NCBI GenBank assembly: GCA_017466345.1
Contig: JAFTUI010000001.1
Location: 13,808-77,807 of the forward strand
DNA length: 64,000 bases
Source of the DNA: Tidjanibacter sp.
GTDB lineage: Bacteria; Bacteroidota; Bacteroidia; Bacteroidales; Rikenellaceae
Direction of reading: 5' to 3'
Shown: in pieces, positions 12,788 to 36,380 of the stretch
How positions within the stretch are numbered: the stretch's first letter is position 1
Layout of the letters: the number at the start of each line of letters is the position of its first letter
Notes under the pieces: model-generated
What the model saw: the letters and a program-made list of their open reading frames with translations, nothing else
The model's database searches: none
What the model was told of the DNA's origin: nothing
Program-made: the position numbers and the translations under genes

Positions 12788-13039
12788 ATGAAAAAAGATA
12801 TCCATCCTAAGAACTATCGTATCGTTGCATTCAAGGATATGTCCAACGATCACGTTTTTCTCTGCCGCTCGGCAGTGAACACCAAAGAGACCTTGGTAGT
12901 GGACGGTGTTGAGTACCCCGTATACAAAATGGAGATTTCGAACACTTCGCACCCCTTCTACACTGGTAAGATGAAACTTGTTGACACTGCTGGTCGTGTT
13001 GATAAGTTTATGCAGCGTTACGCTCGCTACAAAAAGTAA
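12788..13039 (+). CDS. rpmE2: 50S ribosomal protein bL31, type B (no zinc-binding CxxC pairs)
   Basis: MKKDIHP and SHPFYTGK...GRVDKF motifs; 83 aa. Confidence 0.95.
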
Positions 13040-13161
13040 AAACGCATATAATCGGCGACTTAGTCGTTGCACTGCGATAAACCACCTCCTCATTTACGCC
13101 TTGTAAACTGCGGAGGTGGTTTTCTTGTGCGCCTATAATTCATCCGATTCTATGCGTTTTT
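13038..13161 (+). repeat. Palindromic element, copy 1
   Basis: Terminal IR AAAAACGCATA/TATGCGTTTTT; core AAACCACCTC-CTCATTTACG-CCTT-GTAAACTGCG-GAGGTGGTTT. Confidence 0.85.
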
Positions 13162-13162
13162 C

Positions 13163-13286
13163 AATAACACATATAACGGGTGCTTTTCGCACCAAACTGC
13201 AATAGGCGAGTTCCTCATTTGCGCAAAGCAAATTGTGGACTCGCCTTTTTGTTTGGCACAAAAATCCCTCCGCTATATGCGTTATT
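13163..13286 (+). repeat. Palindromic element, copy 2 (tandem with copy 1)
   Basis: IR AATAACACATATA/TATATGCGTTATT; core AGGCGAGTTC-CTCATTTGCG-CAAA-GCAAATTGTG-GACTCGCCT. Confidence 0.8.
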
Positions 13287-13288
13287 TT

Positions 13289-13439
13289 GTCTAACGTCTA
13301 ACGTCTAACGTCAATAGTCCTAAGGCTTATAAGGCATATAAGGCATATAGGGCTTATAGGAATTTAAGGAGTTTAAGGGCTTTAATGACCTTAACGACCT
13401 TAATGTCCTTAATGTCCTTAATGTCCTTAATGTCCTTAT
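13289..13439 (+). repeat. (GTCTAAC)3-GTCAATAGTCC followed by a 9-mer TAAGG/CCTTA array
   Basis: About 7 units carrying TAAGG/TAGG, then 6 units carrying CCTTA (TAATGTCCT x4). Confidence 0.85.
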
Positions 13440-13841
13440 CCTCCCTAATAACCCTCCCCTAAGTTAGGGGAGGGTGCCAAGGCGGGAGAGGTCTGTAAAG
13501 TAGTTCTTCCCCTACGAACCGACGCCCGAAGCGGGAGCAGAGGTTGCTTGCAAACTATGCCCCGCAAGTAGGAGGAAAAGCCACCGAAGGTGGATTAAAG
13601 GGGAGGATAGGAGGGGTGGTCGAAATTGTGCTCGGCGTCCTCGCCGAGCAGTGCCCGAAGGGCGGGAGAGGTCTGTTGAACACACGCCTCATCACTTCGT
13701 GATACCCCCTCTGACTTTGAGGGGGAATTATCATATCTCTCATATCTCTCATTCCTCCCATAAAAAATCTCGGGTATCTTTTTCGATACCCGAGATTTTT
13801 ATTGACCGCAAGTTGCTAATTCGCAAGTTGCTGATTGTTGG

Positions 13842-14978
13842 TTACTCCTCCAAGCCAAGCAGGCGGCACATAATTTTTGGAAGGTCGGTATTCTCGAATA
13901 CACCGCTAAAATGCTCTGAGCCTGTGCCGTAGGCGAAGATGGGAACCATACCGCCCGTATGACCGCCTGTTGTCCAAGCGTAATCCACTTGGTGGTCGTG
14001 GAGGTCGAAGCGGCGGTTGCCATTGACAATTGTCAGTCCGCCCGTCTCGTGGTCGGCAGTAACCACAACGAGTGTTCCAGGGTGTTCATCCGCATAGTCG
14101 AAAGCGACCTCTACTGCGGCGTCAAAATCCCTAATTTCGGCAATCATACCCTCCAAGTCGTGACCGTGAGCCTTGCCGTCAATCTGCGAGCCCTCAACCA
14201 TCAGGAAGAAACCCGTGCGGTCGGCTTTGGCATTATTGGAGAGTATTTCGAGTGCTTTGGCGGTAGCCTCGGGCAGGAAGTCGCCACGACCGCTGAGCAT
14301 TGAGGGCATAGAATCCTCGGTGGGTAATAATGCTACCTTACCCTCGCTAACATTCTCAATATCAGAGATTGAATAGGCGATTGTGTAGCCCCTCTCGCGG
14401 AGTGTGTCGAAGAAGTTGAGCGAGTCGGCACGCTGGTCGAAACGCTTGCTGCCACCGCCCATAAATACATCCAACTCGTTGGAGAGGTAGTAGGTGGCAA
14501 TCTCATCCTCTTTGTGGCGATTGTCAACGTGTGCAACGAAAGCTGCGGGAGTGGCGTTGGTTACGGGGTAGGTAACCACCACGCCCGTAGCCATACCTGC
14601 TCTCTCTGCCTTCTCGCGAATGGAGGGGTGGGGTAGACTGTCGGGTGTGACGCCAATCATTCCGTTGTTGGTCTTGTAGCCCGTAGCCAGAGCTGTACCT
14701 GCTGCTGCCGAGTCGGTTATGCGGTTGTTGGCAGAGTAGGTTTTGCAAAGCCCCACATACTCGGCACGTTCCATAGCCAGAGGCTTGTAGTCTTGCGCAA
14801 TCTGTGCCACCGAGATGTGAGCCACACCCATACCATCACCTATCATATATATAATACGCTCCACGCGGGGCTCCTCGTCACCGAGCCACCTGTTGATGCC
14901 GCGTATTGCCAAGCCTCCAACCAAAATAACCACCACGCACTCCAACAGTGTGCGCCAACCTCTCGAACATCTTTTCAT
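13842..14978 (-). CDS. Alkaline phosphatase family protein
   Basis: MIGDGMG, TDSAAAGTALATG (catalytic Ser), ATPAAF, VEGSQIDGKAH and TADHETGG motifs. Confidence 0.93.
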   Translation of the reverse strand: MKRCSRGWRTLLECVVVILVGGLAIRGINRWLGDEEPRVERIIYMIGDGMGVAHISVAQIAQDYKPLAMERAEYVGLCKTYSANNRITDSAAAGTALATGYKTNNGMIGVTPDSLPHPSIREKAERAGMATGVVVTYPVTNATPAAFVAHVDNRHKEDEIATYYLSNELDVFMGGGSKRFDQRADSLNFFDTLRERGYTIAYSISDIENVSEGKVALLPTEDSMPSMLSGRGDFLPEATAKALEILSNNAKADRTGFFLMVEGSQIDGKAHGHDLEGMIAEIRDFDAAVEVAFDYADEHPGTLVVVTADHETGGLTIVNGNRRFDLHDHQVDYAWTTGGHTGGMVPIFAYGTGSEHFSGVFENTDLPKIMCRLLGLEE

Positions 14979-15076
14979 AGTGATATACTATATAATAAAC
15001 ATACAAATTATACTAACGTGTGCCCATTTGTGCTCTTTTTGCATCCAAATCTTCCGATTATTTGCATAAAAATCAT

Positions 15077-15101
15077 TAACTTTGCACGCAAAGCGTGCAA
15101 A
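15077..15101 (+). promoter_or_regulatory. RND operon -7 box overlapped by a perfect palindrome
   Basis: TAACTTTG at 15077-15084; TTTGCACGC-AAA-GCGTGCAAA at 15081-15101. Confidence 0.6.
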
Positions 15102-15185
15102 ACCACTCGCGGGGAGCTGAGATGCCCTCGTTGGGTGGAATGCCACAAATATAGTTCTTGCAAATATACAAAAATAAATAGAAAA

Positions 15186-16361
15186 ATGAAGCGACTAATT
15201 TTCCTTTTTGTGAGCCTTTGTGTGCTCGCATCGTGCAAAAATGAGGCTCCCAAGCAGCAGACCTCACGCGAGAGAATTTACAAAACAATGACGGTAAAGG
15301 CTGCTGACCGCACACTTACCACAGGCTATGCTGCGACCATCAATGGTTGCCAGACTGTGGAAATTCGCCCCCAGGTGAGCGGTATGATTACCGACATCCT
15401 CATCAATGAGGGTGACTTTGTGTCGAAGGGACAGGTGCTGTTCGTTATCGACCAAACACCCTATAAGGCGGCTTATGAAATTGCGCAGGCAAATGTGAAG
15501 AGTGCCGAGGCTGGTCTTTCAACAGCTCAGCTTATCCTCGATAGTAATAAGGAGCTCTTCGAGCAGGGCGTGGTGTCGGAGTTTGACCTTATGACCTCGC
15601 GCAATGACCTTGTGGATGCCGAGGCACGCTTGGCTCTGGCAAGGGCAGAGGAGATTAACGCTACCAACAACCTCTCCTATACCGAGGTGCGCTCGCCTGT
15701 GGATGGTGTGGCAAGTATGATTCCCTATCGCGTGGGTGCGCTGGTTAGCAGTAGCATTGCAACACCATTGGTTACGGTATCGGACGATAGCGAGGTTTAT
15801 GCCTACTTCTCTATGGCAGAGAATACGATGCTCGACCTTATTCAGGAGTATGGCTCGCTCAAAGAGGCCATCCGCGAGATGCCTGAGGTAGAACTCATTA
15901 TGAGCAATGGTAAGGTGTATAACAAGAAGGGACGTATCAATGCCATCAGTGGTACCATCAGTGCCACCACGGGTGCTGTGAGCCTTCGTGCAACTTTCCC
16001 AAACCGCTCGCGTATGCTGCGCGATGGTGGTAGCGGTAAGGTTGTCATTCCTACGGTGCTGAAAAATGCCATTGTCATTCCTCAGTCGGCAACCTACGAG
16101 TTGCAGGAGAAGATTTTTGTCTATAAGGTTATTGACGGTAAGGCTGTGTCGGCTGGTATCACTGTTCTGCCCCAGAATAATGGCGTTGAGTATATTGTTG
16201 AGAGCGGTCTGTCGGTGGGCGATATGATTATTGCCGAGGGTGCCGGTTTGGTACGCGAGGGCGCAACCATCAAGACCGAGGAGGATGTGGCTCGCGAAGC
16301 TGCCGAGAAGGCTGCCGCAGAGGCTGCTGCCCAAGAGAGTGTTACTGCTAACGAAAAGTAG
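15186..16361 (+). CDS. RND efflux periplasmic adaptor (lipoprotein)
   Basis: Lipobox LASC; VEIRPQVSG, GQVLFVID and EVRSPVDG motifs; start moved to MKRLIF. Confidence 0.92.
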   Translation: MKRLIFLFVSLCVLASCKNEAPKQQTSRERIYKTMTVKAADRTLTTGYAATINGCQTVEIRPQVSGMITDILINEGDFVSKGQVLFVIDQTPYKAAYEIAQANVKSAEAGLSTAQLILDSNKELFEQGVVSEFDLMTSRNDLVDAEARLALARAEEINATNNLSYTEVRSPVDGVASMIPYRVGALVSSSIATPLVTVSDDSEVYAYFSMAENTMLDLIQEYGSLKEAIREMPEVELIMSNGKVYNKKGRINAISGTISATTGAVSLRATFPNRSRMLRDGGSGKVVIPTVLKNAIVIPQSATYELQEKIFVYKVIDGKAVSAGITVLPQNNGVEYIVESGLSVGDMIIAEGAGLVREGATIKTEEDVAREAAEKAAAEAAAQESVTANEK

Positions 16362-16372
16362 GGTAGAGGATT

Positions 16373-19519: not shown

Positions 19520-19522
19520 AGT

Positions 19523-20884
19523 ATGAATAGAGCAAGAATTATAGCAATTTTGACACTTCTTGTGGGGCTTACGGGATGTAGCTTCTACACATCTTTCGAG
19601 CGTCCCGAGGTAAGTAATCTGCACGAACTCTACGAGGCAGATACAACCCACACACGCCTTGCCGACTACTCGTGGCGCGAGTTCTTTACCGACACTCTGC
19701 TCCAAAAGTATATCGAGCGTGGATTGGAGTACAATATAGATCTGCGCACCGCAAGACTCAACATTGTGCAGGCTGAGGCTGCTTTGGAGGCTGCAAAACT
19801 CGCTTTTCTGCCTTCGGTTAATGCTTCGCTGCAATCAACCCTTAGCGGAGGCAATGGCGATGGTGCGACCTTCTCGTATAGCCTTGTGCCTACCGCCTCG
19901 TGGGAGATAGACGCCTTTGGTAAGTTGCGAAATGCAGAGCGAGGTGCCGAGGTGGCACTCCAACAAAGCCACCTTGTGGAGCAGGCTGTGCAGAGCAAAC
20001 TTATCGCTACCATAGCCAACAACTACTACACCCTCTTGATGCTCGATGAACAGCTCAAAACCAGCCAACACACCCTCACGACTTGGGAAGAGAATATCCG
20101 TACCCTTACCGCTCTTAAACGTGCGGGTAAGGCTACCGAGGCGGCAGTGTTGCAGGCTAAGGCCAATAAGTTCAGCGTGGAAGGTCAGGTGCTGACCCTC
20201 GAACGCCAGATTGTTGAGCAGGAGGAGTCGTTGGCAACACTTATGGGCGTACTTCCCTTTGAGATTAAGCGCGGAACGCTTGCCGAGCAGACTTTCCCCG
20301 AAGAGTTCTCGTTGGGTGTGCCCCTCGAACTCGTGTCGTTGCGCCCCGATATTTTGCAGGCAGAGGCTAACCTTGCCACCAAGTTCTACGCTGTCAATGA
20401 GGCTCGTGCGGCATTCTACCCCTCCATAACCCTCAGTGGCTCATTGGGCTGGCAGGATGCGGTGGGCAATGCTATCTCCAACCCAGGGGAGTTCATCTTA
20501 CGCCTTGTGGGTGGCATTGTGCAACCCATCTTTGCGCGTGGAGCCAATAATGCAAGGATGAAAATCGCACTTGCACAACAAGATGCAGCACTTCTGCAAT
20601 ACCGTCAGGCACTGCTCAATGCGGGCGCAGAGGTTAATAATGCGCTGAAAATGTGGCAGACCTCGCGTGAGAGGTACAATATCGACCTCAAACAAATCGT
20701 TACTCTCCGCGCGGCAGTGTGGAACACCCAACTGCTTATGAAATACGGCTCGGCAAGCTATTTGGAGGTGCTTACAGCACAGCAAAACCTCCACAATGCC
20801 GAGTTGGCTGAATCCACCGACCGCTACTCCGAGATACAAGGTATTATACAGCTCTACTACGCTCTCGGTGGCGGTGTGAAATAA
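19523..20884 (+). CDS. RND outer-membrane channel, TolC/NodT-type lipoprotein
   Basis: Lipobox LTGC; SWEIDAFGKLR, RPDILQAE, FYPSITLSG and YYALGGG motifs. Confidence 0.93.
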   Translation: MNRARIIAILTLLVGLTGCSFYTSFERPEVSNLHELYEADTTHTRLADYSWREFFTDTLLQKYIERGLEYNIDLRTARLNIVQAEAALEAAKLAFLPSVNASLQSTLSGGNGDGATFSYSLVPTASWEIDAFGKLRNAERGAEVALQQSHLVEQAVQSKLIATIANNYYTLLMLDEQLKTSQHTLTTWEENIRTLTALKRAGKATEAAVLQAKANKFSVEGQVLTLERQIVEQEESLATLMGVLPFEIKRGTLAEQTFPEEFSLGVPLELVSLRPDILQAEANLATKFYAVNEARAAFYPSITLSGSLGWQDAVGNAISNPGEFILRLVGGIVQPIFARGANNARMKIALAQQDAALLQYRQALLNAGAEVNNALKMWQTSRERYNIDLKQIVTLRAAVWNTQLLMKYGSASYLEVLTAQQNLHNAELAESTDRYSEIQGIIQLYYALGGGVK

Positions 20885-21001
20885 CAAAATATAGAGCGAC
20901 TGCTGCGTTGCACTGCGATAAACTCCCTCCTCATTTACGTCAAAGTAAACTGCGGAGGGAGTTTTCTTGTGTGCCTTGCATTCATCTCTCTATTTTGTTA
21001 T
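20881..21001 (+). repeat. Palindromic element, copy 3 (right-half fragment follows at about 21002-21060)
   Basis: IR ATAACAAAAT...ATTTTGTTAT; core AAACTCCCTC-CTCATTTACG-TCAAA-GTAAACTGCG-GAGGGAGTTT. Confidence 0.85.
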
Positions 21002-21081
21002 TTCTTGTGCTGCGGAGGTCGCCCTCTTGTTTGGCACAAAAATCCCTCCCTCTATTATTCCACACTCGGTGGTTGCTCTTT

Positions 21082-21197
21082 GTCTAACGTCTAACGTCAA
21101 TAGTCCTAAGGCTTATGAGGCTTATAGGGCTTATAGGGCTTATAGGGCTCATAGGAGTTTAACGACCTTAATGTCCTTAATGTCCTTAATGTCCTTA
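21082..21197 (+). repeat. (GTCTAAC)2-GTCAATAGTCC followed by a 9-mer array
   Basis: Same architecture as 13289-13439. Confidence 0.85.
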
Positions 21198-21280
21198 TTC
21201 TCTCTCAACTATTTATGTGACTTTCAATTCCAAGAGCGGTAGATGCCAACCGCCCACCTCACGGTGGTCGTGGCAAGACG

Positions 21281-21314
21281 CAAAAATCGCAGGTTGAATT
21301 TGCAACCTGCGATT
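21281..21314 (-). terminator. Terminator of the orphan membrane gene
   Basis: AATCGCAGGTTG-AATTTG-CAACCTGCGATT with a T-run on the minus strand. Confidence 0.7.
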
Positions 21315-21339
21315 ATGATTATTGTAAATTCGAATAGAG

Positions 21340-22623
21340 TTAATCATTTGATTTTAAGTCTATTGACAAGAAGTTACAAAATGCTTCTTCTGAGCCAATT
21401 TCACTTGTGGTATAACCATAATCTATTAGCTGCCAATAGAATTCCCTAATCTTTTCTTCATTGCTTAGCGACTTCAAAAAGTTGTTAACTGTTCCTAAGT
21501 CTTTGCTTGATATGTATTTGGAACCTAAAAGACTATAATAGAGCAATCTTCTTTTATGTGGGAACTCAACCTCGTTTAGTTTTTGTGTTATGTGTAGTCT
21601 GGCGGATGGATACTCTTCTAAAAAATGGTCAATATCACAAAGCGCAACTCTATATACTTTCCCATTACATAGATATTTGACATTAAACGATAATTTACTC
21701 TCTTTAAGCGTGTGGAATGCAAAAACGGGACTTGTAAATTCCTCGTTTCCCATATACAGAGTATGATATAAATGGGCCGTACCCAAGTATGTTTCCACCT
21801 CTACTCTGCTCATCAATCCCTCATACTTATCTCTTATAAGTCTGCCCGCAATGCGCTCTACATTGTAGTCGTGAGCCAATGATGATACAAACTCGCTAAA
21901 AGTTCCTAAATTGTTGAAATTATTGTCTTGAAGATATGAGTATACCTCTTCCAATGGATTTGCAACCTCTCTAATTGCATCGTGTTTTAGTTCTATTTGG
22001 TTGGGGTTGCAAGTGGTGGTTAAAAATGCAATAAGCGCAATTAACAATATGCACACACATCCTACAACTACTGAGATGATACTCTTTCTTCCTGTCTTGT
22101 TTGTTGTTTCTGCATCAATAGGGGACGGTTGCTCTTGCTGAGTAGTGGTAACTTCATCCGATTTCTCATTTGAGCCAATATGAGTTTTATGGCTATCCTC
22201 TCTTTGGTGGGTAGACTTTTTGTGGGGAAAAAACACTCGCCACGCAGACCTTCCATTTTTACGCAAGCACAGCAAAAGCGCAAATATAATGCAGACTACC
22301 GAAGAGGTAAAGAGCATTTCCCACAAATCTCTGCCATAATCTACACTTTGAACAACTATGTTGATAACTTGCAGTGCACCAAGTATATACAATCCTATGC
22401 GTTTGATTTTCAGTACCTCAAACATTGCATATATCATTGCCAGGTGCAAAAATGTATTCCACCAAAGATAGGATTCTGGTATATGGTAGTCCGAAACTTG
22501 CGTAAACATAAGGGGCGTAGTTATTACTAAACCCACAATGTGGTTTGCTATAACTAAGTAGATGTATAGTTTAAGAATTATGTTTAGTTCGCCCTTGGCA
22601 CCACTTGTTTTATCCCTATTCAT
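21340..22623 (-). CDS. AT-rich orphan membrane protein
   Basis: 427 aa: 4 N-terminal TM segments, a polar linker, a fifth TM segment and a C-terminal domain; promoter TATCTTTG on the minus strand at 22711-22718. Confidence 0.75.
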   Translation of the reverse strand: MNRDKTSGAKGELNIILKLYIYLVIANHIVGLVITTPLMFTQVSDYHIPESYLWWNTFLHLAMIYAMFEVLKIKRIGLYILGALQVINIVVQSVDYGRDLWEMLFTSSVVCIIFALLLCLRKNGRSAWRVFFPHKKSTHQREDSHKTHIGSNEKSDEVTTTQQEQPSPIDAETTNKTGRKSIISVVVGCVCILLIALIAFLTTTCNPNQIELKHDAIREVANPLEEVYSYLQDNNFNNLGTFSEFVSSLAHDYNVERIAGRLIRDKYEGLMSRVEVETYLGTAHLYHTLYMGNEEFTSPVFAFHTLKESKLSFNVKYLCNGKVYRVALCDIDHFLEEYPSARLHITQKLNEVEFPHKRRLLYYSLLGSKYISSKDLGTVNNFLKSLSNEEKIREFYWQLIDYGYTTSEIGSEEAFCNFLSIDLKSND

Positions 22624-22907: not shown

Positions 22908-24449
22908 ATGACACAGGAAGAACTCTTTAAGAAACTGATTGCACACTGCAAGGAGTATGGTTTTATTTTCCCTTCGAGCGAGATTTACGATGGTCTGAGT
23001 GCCGTTTATGACTACGGTCAGCTCGGCGTGGAGCTCAAAAACAACATCAAGACCTATTGGTGGGACTCGATGACCAAACTTCACGACAATATCGTTGGTA
23101 TTGATGCTGCCATCTTTATGCACCCCAAGGTTTGGGAGGCGAGTGGTCACGTTGGCGCATTCAACGATCCTCTTATCGACAACAAGGACTCCAAGAAACG
23201 CTATCGTGCCGATGTGCTCATTGAGGATTGGATTGCCAAGCAGGACGAGAAAATCGAGAAAGAGTGCGCAAAGGCTGCAAAGCGCTTTGGCGAGAGTTTC
23301 AACAAGGAGATGTTCTTGCAGACCAACGCCCGCGTGTTGGATATTAAGGCTCGCAGGGATGAGGTAAACAAACGTATGGCAGACGCACTGAATGCCAACG
23401 ACCTCGCCGAGGTGCGCCAGATTATCCTCGACTGCGAGATTGTGTGCCCCATTTCGGGCTCGCGCAACTGGACCGATGTGCGCCAGTTCAACCTTATGTT
23501 CTCCACCCAGATGGGTTCGGTGGCAGAGGGTGCCAATACCGTCTATCTCCGTCCCGAGACTGCTCAGGGTATCTTCGTAAACTTCCTGAATGTGCAGAAG
23601 ACCGGCAGGATGAAGATTCCCTTCGGAATTGCACAGATTGGTAAGGCTTTCCGTAACGAGATTGTAGCCCGTCAGTTCATCTTCCGTATGAGGGAGTTTG
23701 AGCAGATGGAGATGCAGTTCTTCGTGCGTCCCGGCGAGGAGATGATGTGGTGGAACAAGTGGAAAGAGACCCGTATGAGCTGGCACCGAGCACTCGGCTT
23801 CGGCGATGACAACTACCGCTTCCACGACCACGAGAAACTTGCCCACTACGCCAATGCTGCAACCGATGTGGAGTTCAACTTCCCCTTCGGCTTCAAGGAG
23901 GTGGAGGGTATCCATAGCCGTACCGACTACGACCTGGGTCGCCACCAGCAGTTCTCTGGCAAGAAGATTCAGTATTTCGATCCCGAAACGGGCGAGAGTT
24001 ATGTTCCCTACGTTGTCGAGACCTCTATCGGTGTAGACCGTATGGTATTGCAGGTTCTCTCGGCAGCCTACAAAGAGGAAGCTCTCGAAAATGGCGAAAC
24101 ACGCACCGTACTCTCCATTCCCGCACCTCTGGCTCCCGTCAAGGTGGCTGTATTGCCTCTCGTGAAGAAAGACGGCTTGCAAGAGATTGCTATGGACCTT
24201 GTGCATAAGCTCAAATTCAGCCACAACGTGCAGTACGATGAGAAAGACTCCATTGGCAAACGCTACCGCCGTCAGGACGCTATCGGTACCCCCTTCTGCG
24301 TGACCGTAGACCACCAGACCAAAGAGGACGGCACCGTAACCATCCGTGAGCGCGACACAATGAAACAGTACCGCGTGAGCATCAGCGAGTTGGAGGCTAT
24401 CGTGGCTGAGAAAGTAGGTATGCGTCAGTTGTTCGAGAAGTTAGTTTAA
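22908..24449 (+). CDS. glyQS: Glycine--tRNA ligase, alpha2 type
   Basis: YDYGQLG, LRPETAQG, FRNEI..RQFIFRMREFEQMEM, EKLAHYA and ETSIG motifs. Confidence 0.97.
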   Translation: MTQEELFKKLIAHCKEYGFIFPSSEIYDGLSAVYDYGQLGVELKNNIKTYWWDSMTKLHDNIVGIDAAIFMHPKVWEASGHVGAFNDPLIDNKDSKKRYRADVLIEDWIAKQDEKIEKECAKAAKRFGESFNKEMFLQTNARVLDIKARRDEVNKRMADALNANDLAEVRQIILDCEIVCPISGSRNWTDVRQFNLMFSTQMGSVAEGANTVYLRPETAQGIFVNFLNVQKTGRMKIPFGIAQIGKAFRNEIVARQFIFRMREFEQMEMQFFVRPGEEMMWWNKWKETRMSWHRALGFGDDNYRFHDHEKLAHYANAATDVEFNFPFGFKEVEGIHSRTDYDLGRHQQFSGKKIQYFDPETGESYVPYVVETSIGVDRMVLQVLSAAYKEEALENGETRTVLSIPAPLAPVKVAVLPLVKKDGLQEIAMDLVHKLKFSHNVQYDEKDSIGKRYRRQDAIGTPFCVTVDHQTKEDGTVTIRERDTMKQYRVSISELEAIVAEKVGMRQLFEKLV

Positions 24450-24571
24450 CGAGCGCATCTCGCACCACATCTGCTGCGTTACGCTCGGGCTCGGAATGCT
24501 CATTTACGCCAAAGTAAACTCCGCATCCTCGCCCTTCGCAAGCCTTGCATCTGCGGCACGATATGCACTCG
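24450..24571 (+). repeat. Palindromic element, copy 4
   Basis: Core GGGCTCGGAATG-CTCATTTACG-CCAAA-GTAAACTCCG-CATCCTCGCCC; starts at the glyQS stop. Confidence 0.75.
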
Positions 24572-24783
24572 CAGGTTGGGGAGGGATGGCGCAAACGCAA
24601 CACCCACCCACAGGTTGGGAGATGGTGCAAAAATCACCTCACAATACCCACTCGCAGGTTGGGGAGGGATGGCGCAAACGCAACACCCACCCACAGGTTG
24701 GGAGATGGTGCAAAAATTACCTCACAACACCCACTCGCAGGTTGGGGGGGATGGCGCAAACGCAGCATCCACCCGCGGATTAG
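24566..24783 (+). repeat. 83-bp tandem repeat made of alternating 39/44-bp subunits (A-B-A-B-A')
   Basis: CACTCGCAGG recurs at 24566, 24649 and 24732. Confidence 0.9.
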
Positions 24784-24810
24784 GAGAAGAAGTAACTTTG
24801 AATTACTGAA

Positions 24811-26363: not shown

Positions 26364-26422
26364 GAAAAATTCCGAATTTTCGACTTCGGACCGTTGATAT
26401 TAGACCTTAGGCGTTAGACCAA

Positions 26423-27028: not shown

Positions 27029-27052
27029 TTAACCAATAAAAAAGATAAGAGT

Positions 27053-28093: not shown

Positions 28094-28134
28094 AAATAAA
28101 TTAACCGCACTAATCTAAACTAAAAATTGAAGAG

Positions 28135-29163
28135 ATGAAAAGAGCGTTGTTTTCCCTTGCAACCGCACTCCTTATGATAAGTTGCGGTAGCGATTACATC
28201 GTTAAGGGTACCATCGAGGGTTATTCGGGCGAGGTAAAACTGATGGCTAACAAGAGTCAAGAGTGTTTCGGCTCTGTTGTGACCAAGGATGGCTCGTTCG
28301 AGATAGATATTGACACCAAGGCTCCAATGTTTGCAGTCCTCGTGGTGGGTGATAAACAGCGTATGCTCTTTGTTGAGGAGGGCGAGGTTGTTGTTACGGG
28401 CTCCTTGGAGGAGTGGGGTAGTGTGACCGTTACGGGCACCGCCTCCAACGAGGCTAATGAGGTCTATCGTGCCGAGGAGAAGGCTCTTATGGAGGCTTAT
28501 GTGGCTGCCAAGAGCGAGGAGGAGAGAAACGCCGCCGAGCAGGCATACGATGTACATACCACCACTGCGTATGAGGCTAACAAAGACAACCTCTTTGGTC
28601 TTTATCTCTTGGCAACGCAAATCTACTACTCGATGTCGCCAGACGAGATTTTAGCGGCAGTGGATGCCTTGCCCAAAGAACTGCAAAAATCACATACGGC
28701 AATCACCTTGCGCAACCACGCAGAGGGTATTAAGAGGGTAGATGTGGGACAGAAATTCATTGACCTCAGCCTGCCTGATGCGGAGGGTAATGTAGTGAAA
28801 CTCAGCGATGTGCTTGCAAAGAATAAATACGTTCTTTTGGACTTCTGGGCTTCGTGGTGCGGACCTTGTATGGGCGAGGTACCCTATCTTGTGGAGGATT
28901 ACGCCAAGTACCACAAAAAAGGCTTCGAGATTTATGGTGTGAGCCTCGATAAGACTCGCGAGCCTTGGCTGAAAGCTATCGAGAGCAAGAAACTCGTATG
29001 GATTAACGTGAGCGAGTTGAAGTTTTGGGATGATGAGGCTGCAAAGCAATATGCCGTAAGGAGCATTCCCTCCAACTTCCTCATCGCCTCAGATGGCACC
29101 ATCGTTGCCCGCAATTTGCGTGGCGAGGAGTTGGGTGCGAAGTTAGCCGAACTCCTCAAATAG
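28135..29163 (+). CDS. TlpA/AhpC-TSA redoxin lipoprotein (tandem paralog)
   Basis: Lipobox MISC; DFWASWCGPC motif; same architecture as the upstream gene. Confidence 0.9.
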   Translation: MKRALFSLATALLMISCGSDYIVKGTIEGYSGEVKLMANKSQECFGSVVTKDGSFEIDIDTKAPMFAVLVVGDKQRMLFVEEGEVVVTGSLEEWGSVTVTGTASNEANEVYRAEEKALMEAYVAAKSEEERNAAEQAYDVHTTTAYEANKDNLFGLYLLATQIYYSMSPDEILAAVDALPKELQKSHTAITLRNHAEGIKRVDVGQKFIDLSLPDAEGNVVKLSDVLAKNKYVLLDFWASWCGPCMGEVPYLVEDYAKYHKKGFEIYGVSLDKTREPWLKAIESKKLVWINVSELKFWDDEAAKQYAVRSIPSNFLIASDGTIVARNLRGEELGAKLAELLK

Positions 29164-29273
29164 GGCGCGAGTGTGCCTTGTGGGTGCTTTTTGCACCAAA
29201 CTACGATCAACCACCTTCTCATTTACGAAAAGTAAATTGCGAAGGTGGTTTTCTTGTTCGCCTACTACTCGCC
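29164..29273 (+). repeat. Palindromic element, copy 5
   Basis: Core AACCACCTT-CTCATTTACG-AAAA-GTAAATTGCG-AAGGTGGTT. Confidence 0.8.
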
Positions 29274-29311
29274 TCACAAATCAGACTCTCCCGAGCGATA
29301 GGATAAGGCTT

Positions 29312-29381
29312 ATGGGAGATATGGGAGATATGGGAGATATGGGAGATATGGGAGATATGGGAGATATGGGAGATATGGGAG
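29312..29381 (+). repeat. (ATGGGAGAT)7.8 perfect 9-mer microsatellite
   Basis: Seven exact units plus a partial unit. Confidence 0.92.
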
Positions 29382-29430
29382 TGTTCGCTATCTTAGTTCT
29401 CTCTTCGATTTACAGGCGGCACAAAATAAG

Positions 29431-29458
29431 AAAGGGAGTTCCATTTGGAACTCCCTTT
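29431..29458 (-). terminator. tRNA-Arg terminator
   Basis: AAAGGGAGTTCCA-TT-TGGAACTCCCTTT hairpin immediately 3' of the tRNA. Confidence 0.75.
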
Positions 29459-29459
29459 G

Positions 29460-29533
29460 TGACACCGACAGGACTCAAACCTGTAACCTTCTGATCCGTA
29501 GTCAGATGCTCTATTCAATTAAGCTACGGTGCC
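29460..29533 (-). tRNA. tRNA-Arg(ACG)
   Basis: GGCACCG/CGGTGTC acceptor stem; anticodon arm TCTGA-CTACGGA-TCAGA; CCA not encoded. Confidence 0.95.
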
Positions 29534-29670
29534 GAATTGCGAGTGCAAATATACGGCTTTTTTGGGTATCTGCAAGAAAAAAAGCGAAAATTTTGCAATC
29601 TTTTTTATGCCCCACTCATTATCAGACCTTTACATCTGGCAGTGGAGTGGGGCACTATTTCTGTCGCAAT

Positions 29671-30546: not shown

Positions 30547-30662
30547 AATTTTATAGTATTAAAATTTTATATATTGCCTAATTTTTGTAAATTTGTAACC
30601 TACCCACAGTGGGGTAGACAATTACAAAAATAGTGAAAATTTCTTTAAGTGAACCTAAAATT

Positions 30663-32024
30663 ATGAAAAAGAGTAATCAATTTGTCCAAGAAAACCGCGA
30701 GCGCTTCCTCGAAGAACTCTTTGAGTTGCTCCGCATCCCCTCCATCAGCGCACAAAGTTTCCACCACGAAGATATGGTCAGGACTGCCGAGTGGCTCCGT
30801 GAGGCACTCCTCAGGGCGGGTGCTGATCGTGCCGAGGTTATGCCCACCGCAGGCAACCCCGTAGTCTATGCCGAGAAGATTATCGACCCCGCGAAACCTA
30901 CCGTGGTGGTCTATGGTCACTATGACGTGATGCCCGAGGACCCCAAAGGCGAGTGGCTCACCGACCCCTTCGAGCCCGTCATCAAAGATGGACGCATTTG
31001 GTGCCGTGGTGCCGATGACGACAAGGGACAACTCTTTATGCACGCCAAGGCTTTCGAGGCTATGGTGCAGACGGGCGAACTCCCCTGCAATGTGAAGTTT
31101 ATGCTCGAAGGCGAGGAGGAGATTGGCTCGCCCAGCCTCTACGCTTGGTGCGAGGAGAATAAGGAACTCGTGAAAGGCGACATTATCCTCATTTCGGATA
31201 CGAGTATGATTTCGATGGATACCCCCTCCATCACTTGTGGTCTGCGTGGCTTGTGTTATATGCAGGTGGAGGTTACGGGTCCCGACCACGACCTGCACTC
31301 CGGACTGTATGGTGGTGCTGTTGCCAACCCCGCAAATGTTCTCGCAAACCTCATTACCAAACTTGTTGATGAGCAGGGACGTGTGACCATCCCCGGCTTC
31401 TATGACGATGTGCGCCTGCTGACCGAAGAGGAGCGCATCAACTTCAACAAAGCGCCCTACGACAAGGAGGAGTATATGCGCGGTGTTGGCGTGGAGGAAC
31501 TCGCTGGCGAGGAGGGCTTTACGACTATCGAGCGCACGGGTGTCCGTCCCTCGCTGGATGTGAATGGCATTTGGGGCGGCTACACCCTCGAAGGTACCAA
31601 GACCATCATCCCCTCGAAGGCTTACGCTAAGATCTCTATGCGCCTTGTGCCCGACCAGAATTGGAAGAAGATTGCCCAACTTTTCGAGGACTACTTCCGC
31701 AGCATAGCACCCAAGTGCGTGAAGGTGGATGTTAAGGCTCTGCACGGCGGTCAGCCCTACGTTTCGCCCACCGATTTGAAGGCTTATAAGGCTGCCGAGG
31801 CGGCTATTGTTGATACCTTCGGCAAACAACCTCTGCCCTTCTATTCGGGCGGTAGTATTCCCATTGTGAGTGGTTTCGAGAATATACTCGGTATGAAGTC
31901 CATACTCATTGGCTTTGGCTTGGGTAAGGACGCAATCCACTCTCCCAACGAGAGTTATGGTCTTGACCAGTTCTATAAGGGTATCGAAACCATCATCCGC
32001 TTCTACCACCATTTCGCTAAGTAA
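30663..32024 (+). CDS. M20 family dipeptidase
   Basis: YGHYDV, GRGADDDKG-like RGADDDKGQ, EGEEE, DLHSG and IHSPNE motifs; start moved to MKKSNQ. Confidence 0.92.
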   Translation: MKKSNQFVQENRERFLEELFELLRIPSISAQSFHHEDMVRTAEWLREALLRAGADRAEVMPTAGNPVVYAEKIIDPAKPTVVVYGHYDVMPEDPKGEWLTDPFEPVIKDGRIWCRGADDDKGQLFMHAKAFEAMVQTGELPCNVKFMLEGEEEIGSPSLYAWCEENKELVKGDIILISDTSMISMDTPSITCGLRGLCYMQVEVTGPDHDLHSGLYGGAVANPANVLANLITKLVDEQGRVTIPGFYDDVRLLTEEERINFNKAPYDKEEYMRGVGVEELAGEEGFTTIERTGVRPSLDVNGIWGGYTLEGTKTIIPSKAYAKISMRLVPDQNWKKIAQLFEDYFRSIAPKCVKVDVKALHGGQPYVSPTDLKAYKAAEAAIVDTFGKQPLPFYSGGSIPIVSGFENILGMKSILIGFGLGKDAIHSPNESYGLDQFYKGIETIIRFYHHFAK

Positions 32025-32146
32025 AAAACGCATATAATCGGCGTCTTTGGCGTTGCACTTCAAAAGCGAGTTCCTCACATAGGCTTACTATGCTGCGGAC
32101 TCGCTTTTTTGTGCGCCTAAAATACGCTCGATTCTCTGCGTTTTTT
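32023..32146 (+). repeat. Palindromic element, copy 6
   Basis: IR AAAAAACGCA/TGCGTTTTTT; core AAAAGCGAGTTC-CTCACATAG-GCTTA-CTATGCTGCG-GACTCGCTTTT. Confidence 0.8.
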
Positions 32147-32216
32147 CGTTGTTTGTTCTTTGCAAGCCTTGTACTCGCCTCACGCTATGCAAAATGCGGT
32201 TGTGGGGTTGCCTAAT

Positions 32217-32292
32217 GTCGATAGTCCTAAGTCTTTAAGGAGTTTAAGGAGTTTAAGGAGTTTAAGGAGTTTAAGGTCTTTAAGGTCCTTAA
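32217..32292 (+). repeat. GTCGATAGTCC followed by a (TAAGGAGTT)n 9-mer array
   Basis: Same lead-in as the 13310 and 21096 arrays. Confidence 0.8.
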
Positions 32293-32369
32293 TTTAGTCC
32301 TCATCTAACTTATGGGGAGAGTTCCCATTCCTCCCATTCCTCCCATTTGTTGGGGGAGAGAATAATAAT

Positions 32370-32415
32370 TTTTCAACTTTCAACTTTCAATTTTCAACTT
32401 TATTTCTTAGTTTTG
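32370..32415 (+). promoter_or_regulatory. dnaN promoter with an upstream (YTTTCAA)4 array
   Basis: TAGTTTTG at 32408-32415; TTTC at 32385-32388, 19 nt upstream. Confidence 0.7.
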
Positions 32416-32520
32416 TAGATTAAATAGGGTACTTGTGTGCGCACGCGAGTGGGTGCGCGTGCGAGTAATCACTGAAAGTAGAATAAATAGTAAACGTAAA
32501 ACAATAAAAATCAAAGCATT

Positions 32521-33645
32521 ATGAAATTTACAATCTCCTCTTCGGCACTTTTGTCGCTCCTTTCGACAACGGGTAAGGTGGTAAGCAGCAAGAACACTCT
32601 GCCTATCCTCGACTATTTTCTCTTCGATTTGAAGGGCAACACTCTGAAAGTTACCGCTTCCGACCTCGAAACCACTCTCGTGGGCAGCATCAATGTAGAG
32701 AGTGTGGAGCGTGAGGGTATCATCGCAGCCCCCGTAAAGCTGATGCTCGACTCGCTCAAAGAGTTCTCCGAGCAGCCCCTCACAATCGAGGCTAACGAGG
32801 ATACTTGGGAGATTACCGTAAGTTGGAAGAGCGGTTCGCTCAACATCCCCGGCACCTCGGGCTTGGGCTATCCCGCACTCCCCGAACTCGCCGAGGACAA
32901 AATTGAGGTCGCTCTGGACGTGGATATGATGATTGGCGGTATCAACAAGACCATCTTCGCAACTGCCGATGACGACTTGCGCCCCGTGATGAACGGTATC
33001 TATGTGAACCTTGCACAGGGCTTGGTTACCTACGTTGCTACCGATGCCCACAAACTCGTTAAGCACACCGCTGAGGCTGAGGTGGCGGCAGAGGCTTCGT
33101 TCATCCTGCCCAAAAAACCCTCCAACCTGCTGCGTGGTATCCTGCTCAAAGAGGAGGACGCTGTGAAGGTGGCTTTCGACAAGAAGAATGTTGTTTTCTA
33201 CTTGAAGAACAGCACTTTGGTATGCCGTCTTATTGAGGGTGTATATCCCAACTATAATGCAGTTATTCCCGCAGCCAACCCCAATAGGGTTATCGTTGAC
33301 AGGGTAGAGTTGCTCAATGCCATCAAGCGTGTGGCAGTCTGCTCGAACCAGGCTACCAACCTTGTGGAGTTCAGCATTGGTGCCAACACCATCAACCTTG
33401 CAACCAAAGACCTCGACTTCTCCTACTCGGCACGCGAGAGCGTTTCGTGCGCCTACGAGGGACAACCTATCGTCATTGGCTTCAAATCGACTTTCCTTGT
33501 GGATATTCTCTCCAACATCGAGACCCCCAGCGTTGTCGTTGAGTTGGCAGACTCCACTCGTGCAGGCGTCTTCAAACCCCTCTACGATGAGCCTCAGAGC
33601 GCAAATACCCTGATGCTCTTGATGCCTATGATGATTAACTCGTAG
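32521..33645 (+). CDS. dnaN: DNA polymerase III beta sliding clamp
   Basis: ASDLET, RPVMNG, ATDAHKL and RLIEGVYPNY motifs; C-terminal LLMPMM. Confidence 0.97.
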   Translation: MKFTISSSALLSLLSTTGKVVSSKNTLPILDYFLFDLKGNTLKVTASDLETTLVGSINVESVEREGIIAAPVKLMLDSLKEFSEQPLTIEANEDTWEITVSWKSGSLNIPGTSGLGYPALPELAEDKIEVALDVDMMIGGINKTIFATADDDLRPVMNGIYVNLAQGLVTYVATDAHKLVKHTAEAEVAAEASFILPKKPSNLLRGILLKEEDAVKVAFDKKNVVFYLKNSTLVCRLIEGVYPNYNAVIPAANPNRVIVDRVELLNAIKRVAVCSNQATNLVEFSIGANTINLATKDLDFSYSARESVSCAYEGQPIVIGFKSTFLVDILSNIETPSVVVELADSTRAGVFKPLYDEPQSANTLMLLMPMMINS

Positions 33646-33648
33646 AAT

Positions 33649-34431
33649 ATGGAACTAAATCTCAAAAACCCGATAGTATTCTTCGACCTCGAAACCACCG
33701 GTATAGACATCGTCAAGGACCGCATCATCGAGATTTCGCTCGTGAAAGTGAGCCCCGGTAGCGACAAACCATTGGTAAAGACGCGCCGAATTAAACCCAT
33801 TGATGACAATGGCGAGGTGATGCACATCCCCGCAGAGGCCACAGCGGTTCACGGTATTACCGATGAGGATGTGGCAGGGGAGTATACCTTCCGTCAGATT
33901 GCCAAGTCGCTTGCCGAGCTCATCAAAGGGTGCGATATTGGCGGTTTTAACTCCAATAGGTTCGATGTGCCTATGCTCGCCGAGGAGTTCCTGAGGGCGG
34001 GTGTGGATATTGATCTGAAAAAGCGCAAATTTGTCGATGTGCAGACTATCTTCCACAAGAAGGAGCAACGCACACTCTCGGCAGCTTATATGTTCTACTG
34101 TGGTAAGGAGTTGGAGGGTGCGCACTCGGCAGAGGCGGATACGTTGGCTACCTACGAGGTGCTCAAAGCACAACTCGACCGCTACGAGGACCTGCCCAAC
34201 GACATCGCCGCTTTGGCGGAGTTCAGTCAGCAGAACCGCACAGCCGACTATGCGGGCAGAATTCTCTACGATGATCAGGATAGGGAGATTTTTGGCTTCG
34301 GAAAACACAAAGGCAAACTCGTGGAGGAGGTATTCCGCAAGGAGCCTTCCTACTACGATTGGATGATGGATGGCGATTTCCCGCTCTATACCAAACAGGT
34401 CATAACGCAGATTAAGACCCGTTGCAAGTAG
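33649..34431 (+). CDS. DEDDh 3'-5' exonuclease (Pol III epsilon-like)
   Basis: FDLETTG, GFNSNRFD, AHSAEAD and FGKHKG motifs. Confidence 0.92.
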   Translation: MELNLKNPIVFFDLETTGIDIVKDRIIEISLVKVSPGSDKPLVKTRRIKPIDDNGEVMHIPAEATAVHGITDEDVAGEYTFRQIAKSLAELIKGCDIGGFNSNRFDVPMLAEEFLRAGVDIDLKKRKFVDVQTIFHKKEQRTLSAAYMFYCGKELEGAHSAEADTLATYEVLKAQLDRYEDLPNDIAALAEFSQQNRTADYAGRILYDDQDREIFGFGKHKGKLVEEVFRKEPSYYDWMMDGDFPLYTKQVITQIKTRCK

Positions 34432-34455
34432 AGGTGTAACCCAATTTTTGCACGA

Positions 34456-36279
34456 ATGAAGAGAGAGATTATACTCGTTTGGATGTTGCTCTGTGGGTGT
34501 GTGCTGTCGCTCTCGGCACAGCCCGAACGCTCAAAGGAGGTATTGCGTATCGATGGACAGAATTACTATGTTCATACGGTTGCTGCGGGCGAGGGTGTGG
34601 CAGATATTGCTGCGCTCTACTCGCTCTCGGATAGGGAGATTATCGAGGAGAATGACCTTGACCCTGTGGCTCCTGCCATTGAGGAGGGGAGGGTGCTGAG
34701 GGTGCCCTGCTACGAACGCCTAAGCCGCCTACAACCCAAACGTGGCGATGACCGCTATGACCGCTACCGCACTGTGAGTGGCGAGTCGCTCTTTAAGGTG
34801 GCGGTGGACTTTGCTATTGCCCTCGATACGCTCGTGGAGGATAATGCGGGCTTAGATATTACCAACTTGCATAACAAAACGAGCCTCAATGTGCGCCGCT
34901 CGGCGGCAGGTAGGACACAACTTGCACAGATACAAGAACAGAGTAGTAGGTATGCTGCGTTGCTTGGCTCCCTTTCGCGCGAGTGGGACTATCTTGTTGT
35001 GGGCAAGGGTGGTACGCTCTACTCCATTGCAGTGGAAATGGGTGTTGATGTAGACGATCTGTCGAAGGACAACGGTAATCCCGAACTCATCTATGAGGGT
35101 ATGGCGCTCAAAGTGCGCCGCGCAAACGAAGGCGTGGTGATGGGAGAGTATGAGCCTACCATCAAGAGTGATATTATGGGCTATTTGGATAGCCTCGCAA
35201 CCCACGATGTGGAGTTCCGCCCCTTCGATAAGGATGTCCTTACCGTGTCGCTGATGTTGCCACTGAGCGATACGCTCGGTAGGGTAAGAGGTAGTTTTGT
35301 AGAGTTCTATCAGGGCGCACTGCTTGCTGCTGAGGATTTCAAGGCAGAGGGACGCTCGGTGGATATTCAGCTCTTCAATACGAAGAACTCGGCAGCCTAT
35401 GTAGATGTCTTGGTTGAGCACGAAGATATGTTGGAGAAGACCGATCTCTTTGTTGGTCCCATCTATGAACGTAATGCTGAGGCAGTTGTGGAGTTTGCTG
35501 CCGAAAAGGGTGTGCCTGTGGTGTCGCCACTTGCTACAACCACTTCGGGTACATACGGTAGGCACTACTACCGCCTTGCGCCAACTGATAGCGCACGAAT
35601 GAATAAACTCAGCGGTTTGGTGGCGCCTACTACCAATGTGATAATGGTCTATACCTCCTCGAATGACGAGGAGATGGAACGCGAGATGCTTGCGCTACTT
35701 GGCGACCATCCCTATGGAAAGGTTATCTATAACGAAAGTTTTGAGGTCGATTCGCTCCAAAGCCGCCCCATTGAGGAACTTATGGCAGAGGATGACAACC
35801 TCTTTGTGGTCTTGTCTGATAACGAGATTGAGACCGACCGCTCGCTGGCAATCATCTCTTCGATGATGAACTCTCGCCAACCCAAATATGGCAATCGCAG
35901 GGTGCCTGTGAGAGTTGTGGGCTCGGCTGCGTGGGCGAAGTATAAGAATATGGATAAAAATCTGCTATTCAAACTCGATGTGAGCTATCTTGCCAACTAT
36001 CACGCCGATAGGGGTAGTAAGCGCATTAGGGAGTTCGATAGACGCTTTGTGAGGGAGTTTGGCAGGATGCCATCGATGTTTGCCTACCGAGCTTACGATG
36101 CAGTGAGACTCTTTGCGAGTGCAATTTTTGCGGGTGGAGACCTTGTGTCAGAACTCAATGGCTCGGTGGTGCCACTGCTCCAAGTACCGTATAGTTTTAC
36201 GGAGGAGAATGGCAATATGGTCAATGATTCTTGGGTGTTGGTCAATTATCGCCCGAACTATACGATTAGCATTAAATAA
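34456..36279 (+). CDS. LysM-domain protein with a C-terminal type-I periplasmic binding fold
   Basis: Signal peptide; three LysM-like repeats; LMLPL...EFYQGALLA and GPIY motifs. Confidence 0.8.
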   Translation: MKREIILVWMLLCGCVLSLSAQPERSKEVLRIDGQNYYVHTVAAGEGVADIAALYSLSDREIIEENDLDPVAPAIEEGRVLRVPCYERLSRLQPKRGDDRYDRYRTVSGESLFKVAVDFAIALDTLVEDNAGLDITNLHNKTSLNVRRSAAGRTQLAQIQEQSSRYAALLGSLSREWDYLVVGKGGTLYSIAVEMGVDVDDLSKDNGNPELIYEGMALKVRRANEGVVMGEYEPTIKSDIMGYLDSLATHDVEFRPFDKDVLTVSLMLPLSDTLGRVRGSFVEFYQGALLAAEDFKAEGRSVDIQLFNTKNSAAYVDVLVEHEDMLEKTDLFVGPIYERNAEAVVEFAAEKGVPVVSPLATTTSGTYGRHYYRLAPTDSARMNKLSGLVAPTTNVIMVYTSSNDEEMEREMLALLGDHPYGKVIYNESFEVDSLQSRPIEELMAEDDNLFVVLSDNEIETDRSLAIISSMMNSRQPKYGNRRVPVRVVGSAAWAKYKNMDKNLLFKLDVSYLANYHADRGSKRIREFDRRFVREFGRMPSMFAYRAYDAVRLFASAIFAGGDLVSELNGSVVPLLQVPYSFTEENGNMVNDSWVLVNYRPNYTISIK

Positions 36280-36380
36280 CGCAAGATAGGCGGATGATTT
36301 CCGCGTTATGCTTAAAAGGTGGCTTCCTTGTTTACGCTTAGTAAACTCAGGAGCCACCTTCTTTACGAGTCTTCAAATCC
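36280..36380 (+). repeat. Palindromic element, copy 7 (divergent; right boundary approximate)
   Basis: Core AAGGTGGCTTC-CTTGTTTACG-CTTA-GTAAACTCAG-GAGCCACCTT. Confidence 0.7.

Follow-up and report, generated by a model that had tools for sequence, protein, structure and literature searches.

Introduction

Strain typing has made use of ERIC repeats for more than 30 years, and to our knowledge no enzyme that moves them is known. [quoted passage not shown] Repetitive extragenic palindromes (REPs) of the GTAG type are reported to supply stop codons to flanking open reading frames (ORFs) (PMC3733652). Here we describe a hairpin repeat of about 124 nt, seven copies of which lie in a stretch of 64,000 nucleotides (the window, C5:13808-77807) of G000, the small gut genome of a Tidjanibacter sp. 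(Rikenellaceae, Bacteroidales) available as a metagenome-assembled genome (MAG). The repeat nearly always starts at the stop codon of the preceding gene and mostly has the orientation of that gene. It is probably an ERIC-like MITE that was amplified in this lineage and serves as a terminator hairpin at gene 3' ends. The initial annotation of the window knew of no account of such elements in Rikenellaceae, and our literature search found no description of the hairpin family either.

Results

A repeat family anchored at stop codons

A profile made of the seven window copies gave 161 nhmmer matches at E<1e-3 in the whole G000 assembly (1.82 Mb, 30 contigs). Near-full-length copies numbered 141 and distinct sequences 137, and the elements total about 19 kb, approx. 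1% of the DNA. Since many contigs terminate in an element copy, the true copy number is probably above 161. Near-identical stretches present twice in the assembly (contigs C7/C18, C9/C15, C19/C27, C17/C26 and C14/C20) suggest strain heterogeneity or redundant binning, and a few copies are therefore counted twice. The unit contains no ORF, and its outer arms, with 11-20 paired bases, are terminal inverted repeats. Unrelated loci hold copies which are 97-99% identical and in which the homology stops exactly at the element ends; thus the element is a discrete unit.

The family is a mosaic of a few outer-arm types (e.g. AAAAACGCATATAA..., GCGAGTGTGCCTTGTGGG... and GCGGCTGATTTCTGTGGG...) and a few middle-arm types (e.g. 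GGCGTCTTTGGCGTTGCAC, GGGTGCTTTTTGCACC and GCATCTGCTGCGTTACGC) with a variable inner stem. The core is nearly fixed and reads CTCATTT(A/G)CG, loop, (T/C)AAACT(G/C)CG, the apical loop varying freely. This central hairpin carries a conserved TCA / CTGC internal loop, and in the major subtypes a stem of 9-13 bp and the apical stem are followed by a T-rich tail, TTTTCTTGT or CTTCTTGTTT, whose T-run lies partly within the stem. The tail is richer in T on the sense strand than on the antisense strand (mean 4.0 vs 1.9 of 9). A simple terminator scan does not call the element cores, because their stem is interrupted. No Rfam 15 family matched the element: only tRNAs reached the gathering score in the window, and permissive scans of copies A and B and of five loci with distant relatives gave nothing near threshold.

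The position of the copies was assessed in a way that is free of gene calls, by searching for a co-oriented ORF of at least 80 aa that ended between -40 and +25 nt from the 5' end of the element; the gene calls used elsewhere came from our own codon-usage caller, of which this statistic is independent. Such an ORF ended at 108 of the 126 solo or first-in-array copies (86%), compared with 21% when intergenic positions and strands were drawn at random and with 18/126 on the opposite side. The stop codon ended at most 3 nt from the first base of the element in 74 of the 108 cases, the mode being a one-base overlap, and it typically consisted of a T and the element's own AA or AG. The stops were TAA in 63, TAG in 42 and TGA in 3 cases (n=108), against 55%, 34% and 11% genome-wide, hence TGA was depleted. 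In tandems the second copy begins 1-3 nt after the first. The stop-codon anchoring and the common orientation pointed out by the initial annotation for the window thus hold for the whole genome.

Copies in the window

All seven copies listed by the initial annotation in the window were confirmed by nhmmer on the plus strand. Both fragments mentioned with them proved genuine, and a third remnant was found at about 32147-32195. The names given to the upstream genes were upheld by Pfam (L31, OEP/TolC, class II aminoacyl-tRNA synthetase (GlyQS), AhpC/Redoxin+DUF4369, M20 peptidase and LysM+Peripla_BP_6). The copies and remnants are the following (G049, G050 and G054, here and below, are genomes of relatives):

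11323-11348, plus strand: fragment, 5' arm only (AAAACGCATCTTGCGGGTGCTTTTT), beginning at the stop codon of an ABC-transporter ATPase gene
13038-13161, plus strand: copy A, full length (nhmmer 13038-13161), RNAfold -50.7 kcal/mol, z -8.6
13163-13287, plus strand: copy B, full length (nhmmer 13164-13286), in tandem 1 nt past copy A
20879-21003, plus strand: copy C, full length (nhmmer 20880-21002), follows the TolC gene
21004-21060, plus strand: remnant behind copy C, 5'-truncated 3' half of a B-type copy, weak nhmmer match
24439-24566, plus strand: copy D (nhmmer 24439-24566), after glyQS (stop 24447-24449)
29164-29287, plus strand: copy E (nhmmer 29170-29282), after the second thioredoxin-like (TlpA-like) gene, whose stop ends at 29163
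32023-32146, plus strand: copy F (nhmmer 32024-32145), after the M20 dipeptidase gene
32147-32195, plus strand: remnant behind copy F, 3' arm of an older copy (...GCAAGCCTTGTACTCGCCTCAC...), nhmmer E 0.13, common to G049
36278-36388, plus strand: copy G (nhmmer 36278-36388), after the LysM/periplasmic-binding gene

The TAA stop of rpmE2 (13037-13039) overlaps the first two bases of copy A, and the middle arm of copy B (GGGTGCTTTTCGCACC) is of another subtype than that of copy A. The 5' arm of copy C includes the last TolC codon and the stop (AAATAA, ending at 20884), which pair with TTATTT in the 3' arm; the orthologous site in G050 has the identical layout, a full copy and then a 3' half. Copy D has a T-poor tail and middle arms (GCGTTACGCT...CGCAAGCCTTG) that are the commonest ones in other families of the order. 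Copy E is identical in conspecific strains, and its site is empty in G054, where a canonical terminator is found. In copy F the apical stem CATAG/CTATG replaces TTTAC/GTAAA, and a copy of a different subtype stands at this junction in the G049 ortholog. Copy G has an intact core hairpin and degenerate outer arms; its site is empty and has a canonical terminator in G049.

Fold and covariation

Each copy folds into one long rod-like hairpin. When the folds were compared with those of shuffled sequences, five of the seven copies gave z values of -5.3 to -8.6, copy G gave -4.7 and the divergent copy D only -2.3. Covariation was analysed in 38 copies with less than 80% mutual identity, for which RNAalifold proposed 32 consensus pairs, arranged as six collinear helices. 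The cells at these pairs were paired in 88.9%, compared with 68.0% in column shuffles (none of 500 reached the observed value) and with 38-51% when the partners were slid. Changes on both sides were seen in 28 of the 32 consensus pairs (278 cells), so the stems were correctly described as fully covarying by the initial annotation. The mismatch and bulge letters which it held to be fixed are indeed so: CTCATTT.CG and AAACT.CG were invariant or at least 90% conserved in the same 38 diverse copies. Compensatory change was also seen between orthologs. At locus 2 CGCGGG/CCTCCGCG of G000 corresponds to CGCTGG/CCTCAGCG in G049, and TTTGC/GCAAA to CTTAC/GTAAG.

The covariation had been taken as the mark of selection on a single strand that is read by a protein. 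The data do not show this. G.U pairs on the top strand (35) and A.C mismatches (41) were about equally frequent outside three fixed G.U positions; a cruder count of mismatches over whole arms favours the opposite strand. Symmetrisation of the palindromes at the DNA level, for example by intrastrand template switching or by conversion between arms or between copies, would yield the same covariation pattern. Some of the palindromes include the final codons of the gene: GAAATAA is paired with TTATTTC in copy C, and four other copies behave likewise. Since the C-terminus of the protein is identical in relatives with an empty site, it is the 3' arm that has come to match gene-derived sequence.

Occupancy, terminators and turnover among relatives

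The close relatives are Tidjanibacter sp., Alistipes sp. and Rikenellaceae MAGs, of which most come from the guts of ruminants and other animals. With R1, a covariance model built from the G000 copies, 17 of 24 congeners had at least 11 matches (top at least 86), one had a single match and six had none. Copy numbers in the named relatives were 0, 5, 6, 22, 23, 47, 59, at least 133 and at least 137, the values outside G000 being lower bounds from a limited number of candidates scored per genome.

Species differ in which orthologous gene ends are occupied. An ordinary canonical terminator, i.e. a GC hairpin and a T-run about 15-60 nt past the stop, was present at each of the empty sites inspected, namely those behind rpmE2 (five records), LysM and TlpA2 and at loci 1, 3, 4, 5, 6, 7 and 8. 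Most filled sites had no other terminator, and the C-termini of the proteins were unchanged. Behind identical RpmE2 proteins the records contained canonical terminators of three unrelated sorts, a single element, two elements of other subtypes, the A+B pair, or a minimal core-only hairpin, and different subtypes were present at this junction in four records. The core-only form, which has no outer arms (CAGAGAGCGAGTTCCTCATTTGTAAATGTGGAACTCGCTCTTCTTTTG), was found after rpmE2 in L110 (metagenome record JAZLDY010000003.1); it may be a decayed copy or may hint at a relation between the core and terminators.

At the A+B site of G054 (about 90% DNA identity) there is only one copy, an A/B hybrid, accounted for by loss of the DNA between the TATGCGTT repeats of the two 3' arms. 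This hybrid and the different subtypes at the rpmE2 junction are evidence of recombination between copies. Remnants truncated at the 5' side lay behind a full stop-proximal copy in 12 of 12 cases, and at loci 5 and 8 of G054 a different full copy stands at the stop, the G000-type copy being reduced to a downstream remnant. Several sites of 97-99% identical copies are also filled in species that are 10-25% diverged, sometimes with another subtype; in-place replacement or conversion must therefore be common. The high identity of such young-looking copies may reflect conversion or replacement, not fresh transposition, and it was rejected as proof of new insertion, most of these copies being at sites filled elsewhere. 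Recent transposition within the species was likewise discarded, the elements being identical in conspecific contigs at five window sites, where only the 9-mer arrays vary.

A shorter recurring unit was noticed behind full copies (G000 C12:34100-34300 and C8:144180-144400; L154 and L166 in G054). In this unit a G-rich linker (GGGTGGGGAG...CACAAAAG) and a small hairpin (GCGTCATTCTGACGC or GCATCGTTCCGATGC) are followed by the 3' arm of an element alone. The unit would seem to be either a reduced derivative or another family with a common 3' arm.

Relatives in the order and in Escherichia coli

Matches to R1 were obtained in 72 of 301 genomes sampled across the order, representing 57 of 199 genera, most of them with 1-11 scored matches. 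These distant copies have the same plan and the conserved blocks CGTT(A/G)C.CT, CTCATTTAC, loop, GTAAACTCCGC and GCCT(T/C)GAA. In G322, a complete 5.1-Mb genome from a different family of the order, the relatives have the form of classical MITEs with a length of about 150 nt. About 210 matches to their terminal repeats were counted there, hence about 100 elements; eleven copies were fetched (L143-L149), with pairwise identities of about 87-100%. Their terminal inverted repeats are at least 18 nt long and read G(T/A)GTT(T/C)GTC..., and they are flanked by target duplications of 6 bp of the form TAnnTA (TAATTA, TATTTA, TATCTA, TACTTA, TAAATA, TACATA). Some are inserted next to the ends of one another. 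The G322 copies are neither anchored at stop codons nor oriented with genes, so strict anchoring is a derived trait of the Tidjanibacter-like clade. The consensus of the G322 MITE had no match in plasmids or phages.

A resemblance to enterobacterial palindromes, of which BoxC/YPAL had come to mind in the initial annotation, was a good lead as regards ERIC and a palindromic E. coli repeat of about 150 nt. R1 could be aligned over the full length of an ERIC copy from E. coli (15.8 bits, E 0.002 in 1.7 kb). A second model, R2, built from Bacteroidales copies only and without ERIC, found just three candidates on a 5.1-Mb E. coli chromosome, one ERIC (24.5 bits, E 0.06) and two copies of the other palindromic repeat. 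Local alignments scored 45 with ERIC and 48 with the other repeat, against 24 +/- 4 and 22 +/- 3 in a null that preserves the palindrome; none of 200 null alignments reached the ERIC score, and both alignments exceeded the null in one orientation only. When copies A and B were compared with E. coli genomes by blastn nothing was found, and the kinship with ERIC is visible only with covariance models and scored local alignment. The second E. coli repeat (NZ_CP025916.1:354581-354697 and 3649944-3650001; L183, L185) is present in small numbers, the median genome having about 5 places that match its 58-nt core.

Other features of the window

The intergenic space remaining after the elements is occupied by arrays of 7-nt (GTCTAAC, AATTCTC) and 9-nt (TAAGGCTTA, TATGGGAGA, TTAAGGAGT) tandem repeats (13289-13450, 21075-21210, 29302-29390, 32219-32310 and 36482-36540). 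The TATGGGAGA array has 7 units in the window vs 3 in a conspecific contig, and in relatives such arrays are also seen at sites without an element. Directly behind copy D there are three tandem GC-rich units of 83 nt (CACGATATGCACTCGCAGGTTGGGGAGGGATGGCGCAAACGC...; 24557-24805), which start with the 3' outer-arm sequence of the element. On the minus strand an ORF of 427 aa without a Pfam match lies between the TolC and glyQS units (21340-22623); it was passed over by the codon-usage gene caller and may be foreign. Two tRNA genes, also on the minus strand, are at 29460-29533, just past copy E and its 9-mer array, and at 38908-38980 (Rfam tRNA, 63.5 and 74.4 bits).

Discussion

A probable terminator module at gene ends

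The interpretation that we consider probable is that the elements are a lineage-amplified, ERIC-like MITE that serves as the terminator hairpin of gene 3' ends. An order-wide superfamily of non-coding, ERIC-like MITEs would have expanded in a Tidjanibacter-like subclade of the Rikenellaceae to about 50 to more than 130 copies per genome of about 1.9 Mb. There the element would have become the standard 3'-end module of transcription units, starting at or supplying the TAA or TAG and having the orientation of the gene. The core hairpin with its T-rich tail probably acts as an intrinsic terminator, as a hairpin that stabilises the 3' end of the mRNA, or as both. New or replacement copies would settle beside the stop codon and push older terminators or copies downstream, where the displaced units would decay or recombine, thereby producing the tandem pairs, half-elements and mosaics. 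The arms would stay complementary because the hairpin is needed, because palindrome symmetry is maintained at the DNA level, or both.

A number of observations weigh against this interpretation. About one third of the copies (the D-type and the AAAATCAAAACC type) have no T-rich tail, and at locus 2 in G049 and G054 a canonical terminator persists downstream of the element, so the element is not always the sole terminator. No target-site direct repeat flanks the G000 copies, including the pairs with 97-99% identity, and the copies have no conserved 3' flank. Young-looking copies are often at sites that are filled in other species too, no insertion polymorphism was seen among conspecific strains at the five window sites compared, and the proximal copy was the younger one in 9 of 15 full-plus-full tandems, which is non-significant. 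The G000 assembly lacked any multi-copy protein family that might be an IS transposase, and it yielded no transposase candidate. As to ERIC, the E-values are weak (0.002 in 1.7 kb, 0.06 genome-wide) and the scores are specific for one orientation. Because of these E-values the claim is limited to kinship at the superfamily level, for which the signal is weak but consistent, and does not extend to membership of ERIC proper.

The elements could also be purely selfish MITEs with no host function, whose position reflects an insertion preference for TA-rich gene ends combined with purging, the old terminators drifting away. We hold this to be rather unlikely. Copy numbers that range from 0 to more than 130 among congeners, the decay of remnants, the ordinary MITEs of G322 (either orientation, TAnnTA duplications) and the canonical terminators retained at some filled sites would all fit it. 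However, purging of harmful insertions gives no reason for the avoidance of the remaining 3' intergenic space, which is long and filled with repeats, nor for the exact junction, i.e. the sharp peak at the stop codon with 74 of 108 copies within 3 nt. The 86% co-orientation is also left unexplained, and canonical terminators have been lost at most filled sites and were present at all empty sites inspected.

A lower probability is given to a structured RNA element of the 3' untranslated region, with termination of transcription being secondary. In that case the conserved loop (TCA / CTGC beside TTTAC/GTAAA) would be bound by a protein or an RNase and would control mRNA decay or translation termination, for which ERIC and RNase E in Yersinia and the stop-proximal REPs of E. 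coli are precedents. The stems all covary, whereas the loop letters are kept in ERIC and across the families of the order; the stop codon falls within the outer stem or at its foot; and the 3'-end effect of ERIC is reported to work through an RNase E site (PMC10969869). On the other hand, termination at the core hairpin would leave the 3' arms untranscribed, so that no outer stem could form in RNA, and the covarying pairs have no excess of top-strand G.U over A.C.

The search for a mobilising enzyme

The initial annotation regarded the elements as dispersed, structure-preserving palindromes of the REP/MITE type, possibly mobilised by an HUH enzyme (RAYT/IS200-like). The kind of element, its co-orientation and its anchoring at stops stood up, and the enzyme did not. 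The Pfam profile Y1_Tnp (PF01797), which matched in 6 of 14 named genomes used as a control, was absent from G000 and from all element-bearing congeners; among 31 genomes its sole match was in G009, which has no elements. These genomes are MAGs, from which mobile genes and insertion sequences are often missing. A REP/REPIN system mobilised by a RAYT, the Y1 HUH transposase, would be compatible with the doublet-like palindromic architecture, the high copy number, the extragenic location and the preserved complementarity, and GTAG-type REPs are also reported to supply stop codons (PMC3733652). Without a Y1_Tnp gene, and with one unit of 124 nt in place of two REPs of 20-40 nt and no conserved terminal tetranucleotide of the GTAG/CGTC kind in the alignments, we rejected this explanation as very improbable.

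Least probable of all are attC-like sites, which an integron-type tyrosine recombinase would process in the form of folded single strands: the retained structure with varying sequence, the covarying stems, the location at gene 3' ends, new units entering at the first position (proximal-new, distal-old), the AAC...GTT ends of the commonest subtype and a length similar to that of the Vibrio VCRs are parallels, but no integron integrase (TIGR02249) was above the curated cut-off in the 31 genomes, the elements stand behind dispersed housekeeping genes and form no cassette array, other subtypes have no AAC/GTT ends, and a conserved centre with varying ends is the reverse of attC, so this reading was rejected.

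In G322 no pair of the inverted-repeat ends enclosed a gene among the matches listed. A gene of 320 aa lies 87 nt from one MITE copy; it may resemble the Rpn/PD-(D/E)XK 'putative transposase' proteins, and it has no homolog in G000.

A mechanism that reads gene ends could place ERIC-like units between the stop and the existing terminator or older unit, in one orientation and without target duplication. We put this forward as a doubtful proposal. If it were true, gene 3' ends would be a layered record of successive insertions, and the element would choose its target in a way that is new for bacterial mobile elements. The long-sought enzyme that mobilises ERIC-type repeats might then also come within reach, since complete genomes of the order contain many related copies that have classical ends and target duplications.

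Practical consequences are that the elements disrupt short-read assemblies of these gut MAGs and can mislead the prediction of terminators and small RNAs. One clade uses the element as a standard stop-codon module and other clades keep clean terminal repeats with target duplications, so that the family offers comparative material on what mobilises such elements and on the question of parasite versus working terminator.

Comparison with known systems

The REP, BIME and REPIN sequences are, like the window elements, extragenic palindromes that lie just past stop codons and can supply the stop (PMC3733652), and they also form mosaic arrays in which complementarity is maintained. Unlike the REP/REPIN-RAYT systems, the window elements have neither a RAYT nor a GTAG/CGTC tag, and their unit is three to four times longer.

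Classical MITEs (the G322 relatives, Correia/NEMIS) and SPRITE of S. pneumoniae are small and non-coding, have terminal inverted repeats, occur in high copy number and form a stable hairpin, as the window elements do, and SPRITE is also terminator-like. The G000 elements differ from classical MITEs in their conserved centre and varying termini, in the lack of target duplication, and in that they are neither randomly oriented nor inserted inside genes.

The E. coli repeat of about 150 nt has a 51-nt core that is approx. 78% identical to the D-type (TTG.GCTCGAAATCCTCA..TAC...GTA..CT.CGG.TTCTC.GCGCT). It differs in its low copy number, its other outer arms and its phylum, and it is possibly a minor family of older surveys.

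ERIC/IRU differs from the window family in its reported range, which is the Enterobacteriaceae and Vibrionaceae (PMC10969869) and not the Bacteroidales, and the overall sequence identity between the two is low. Unlike ERIC/IRU, the window elements are anchored at the stop almost exactly, are co-oriented with the gene in 86%, have highly variable outer arms and, in most subtypes, a terminator-like T-rich tail, and no target duplication was seen around them. Both are imperfect palindromes of about 125 nt which fold as a single long rod, and both are located at gene 3' ends in copy numbers that vary widely between taxa (PMC10969869). They have a common tip (stem, TCA, (C/T)TTAC, loop, GTAA(G/A), CT(C/GC), stem) and the common blocks CTGCGTT and GCCTT...AACTCG. 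The weak similarity takes in the central inverted repeat, which in ERIC (about 127 bp) is where the ERIC1R/ERIC2 primers lie, and runs along the element. The location of the window elements directly past the stop would also fit transcription within the 3' untranslated region, as in ERIC. With relatives throughout the Bacteroidales, the range of ERIC-related elements would be extended to another phylum.

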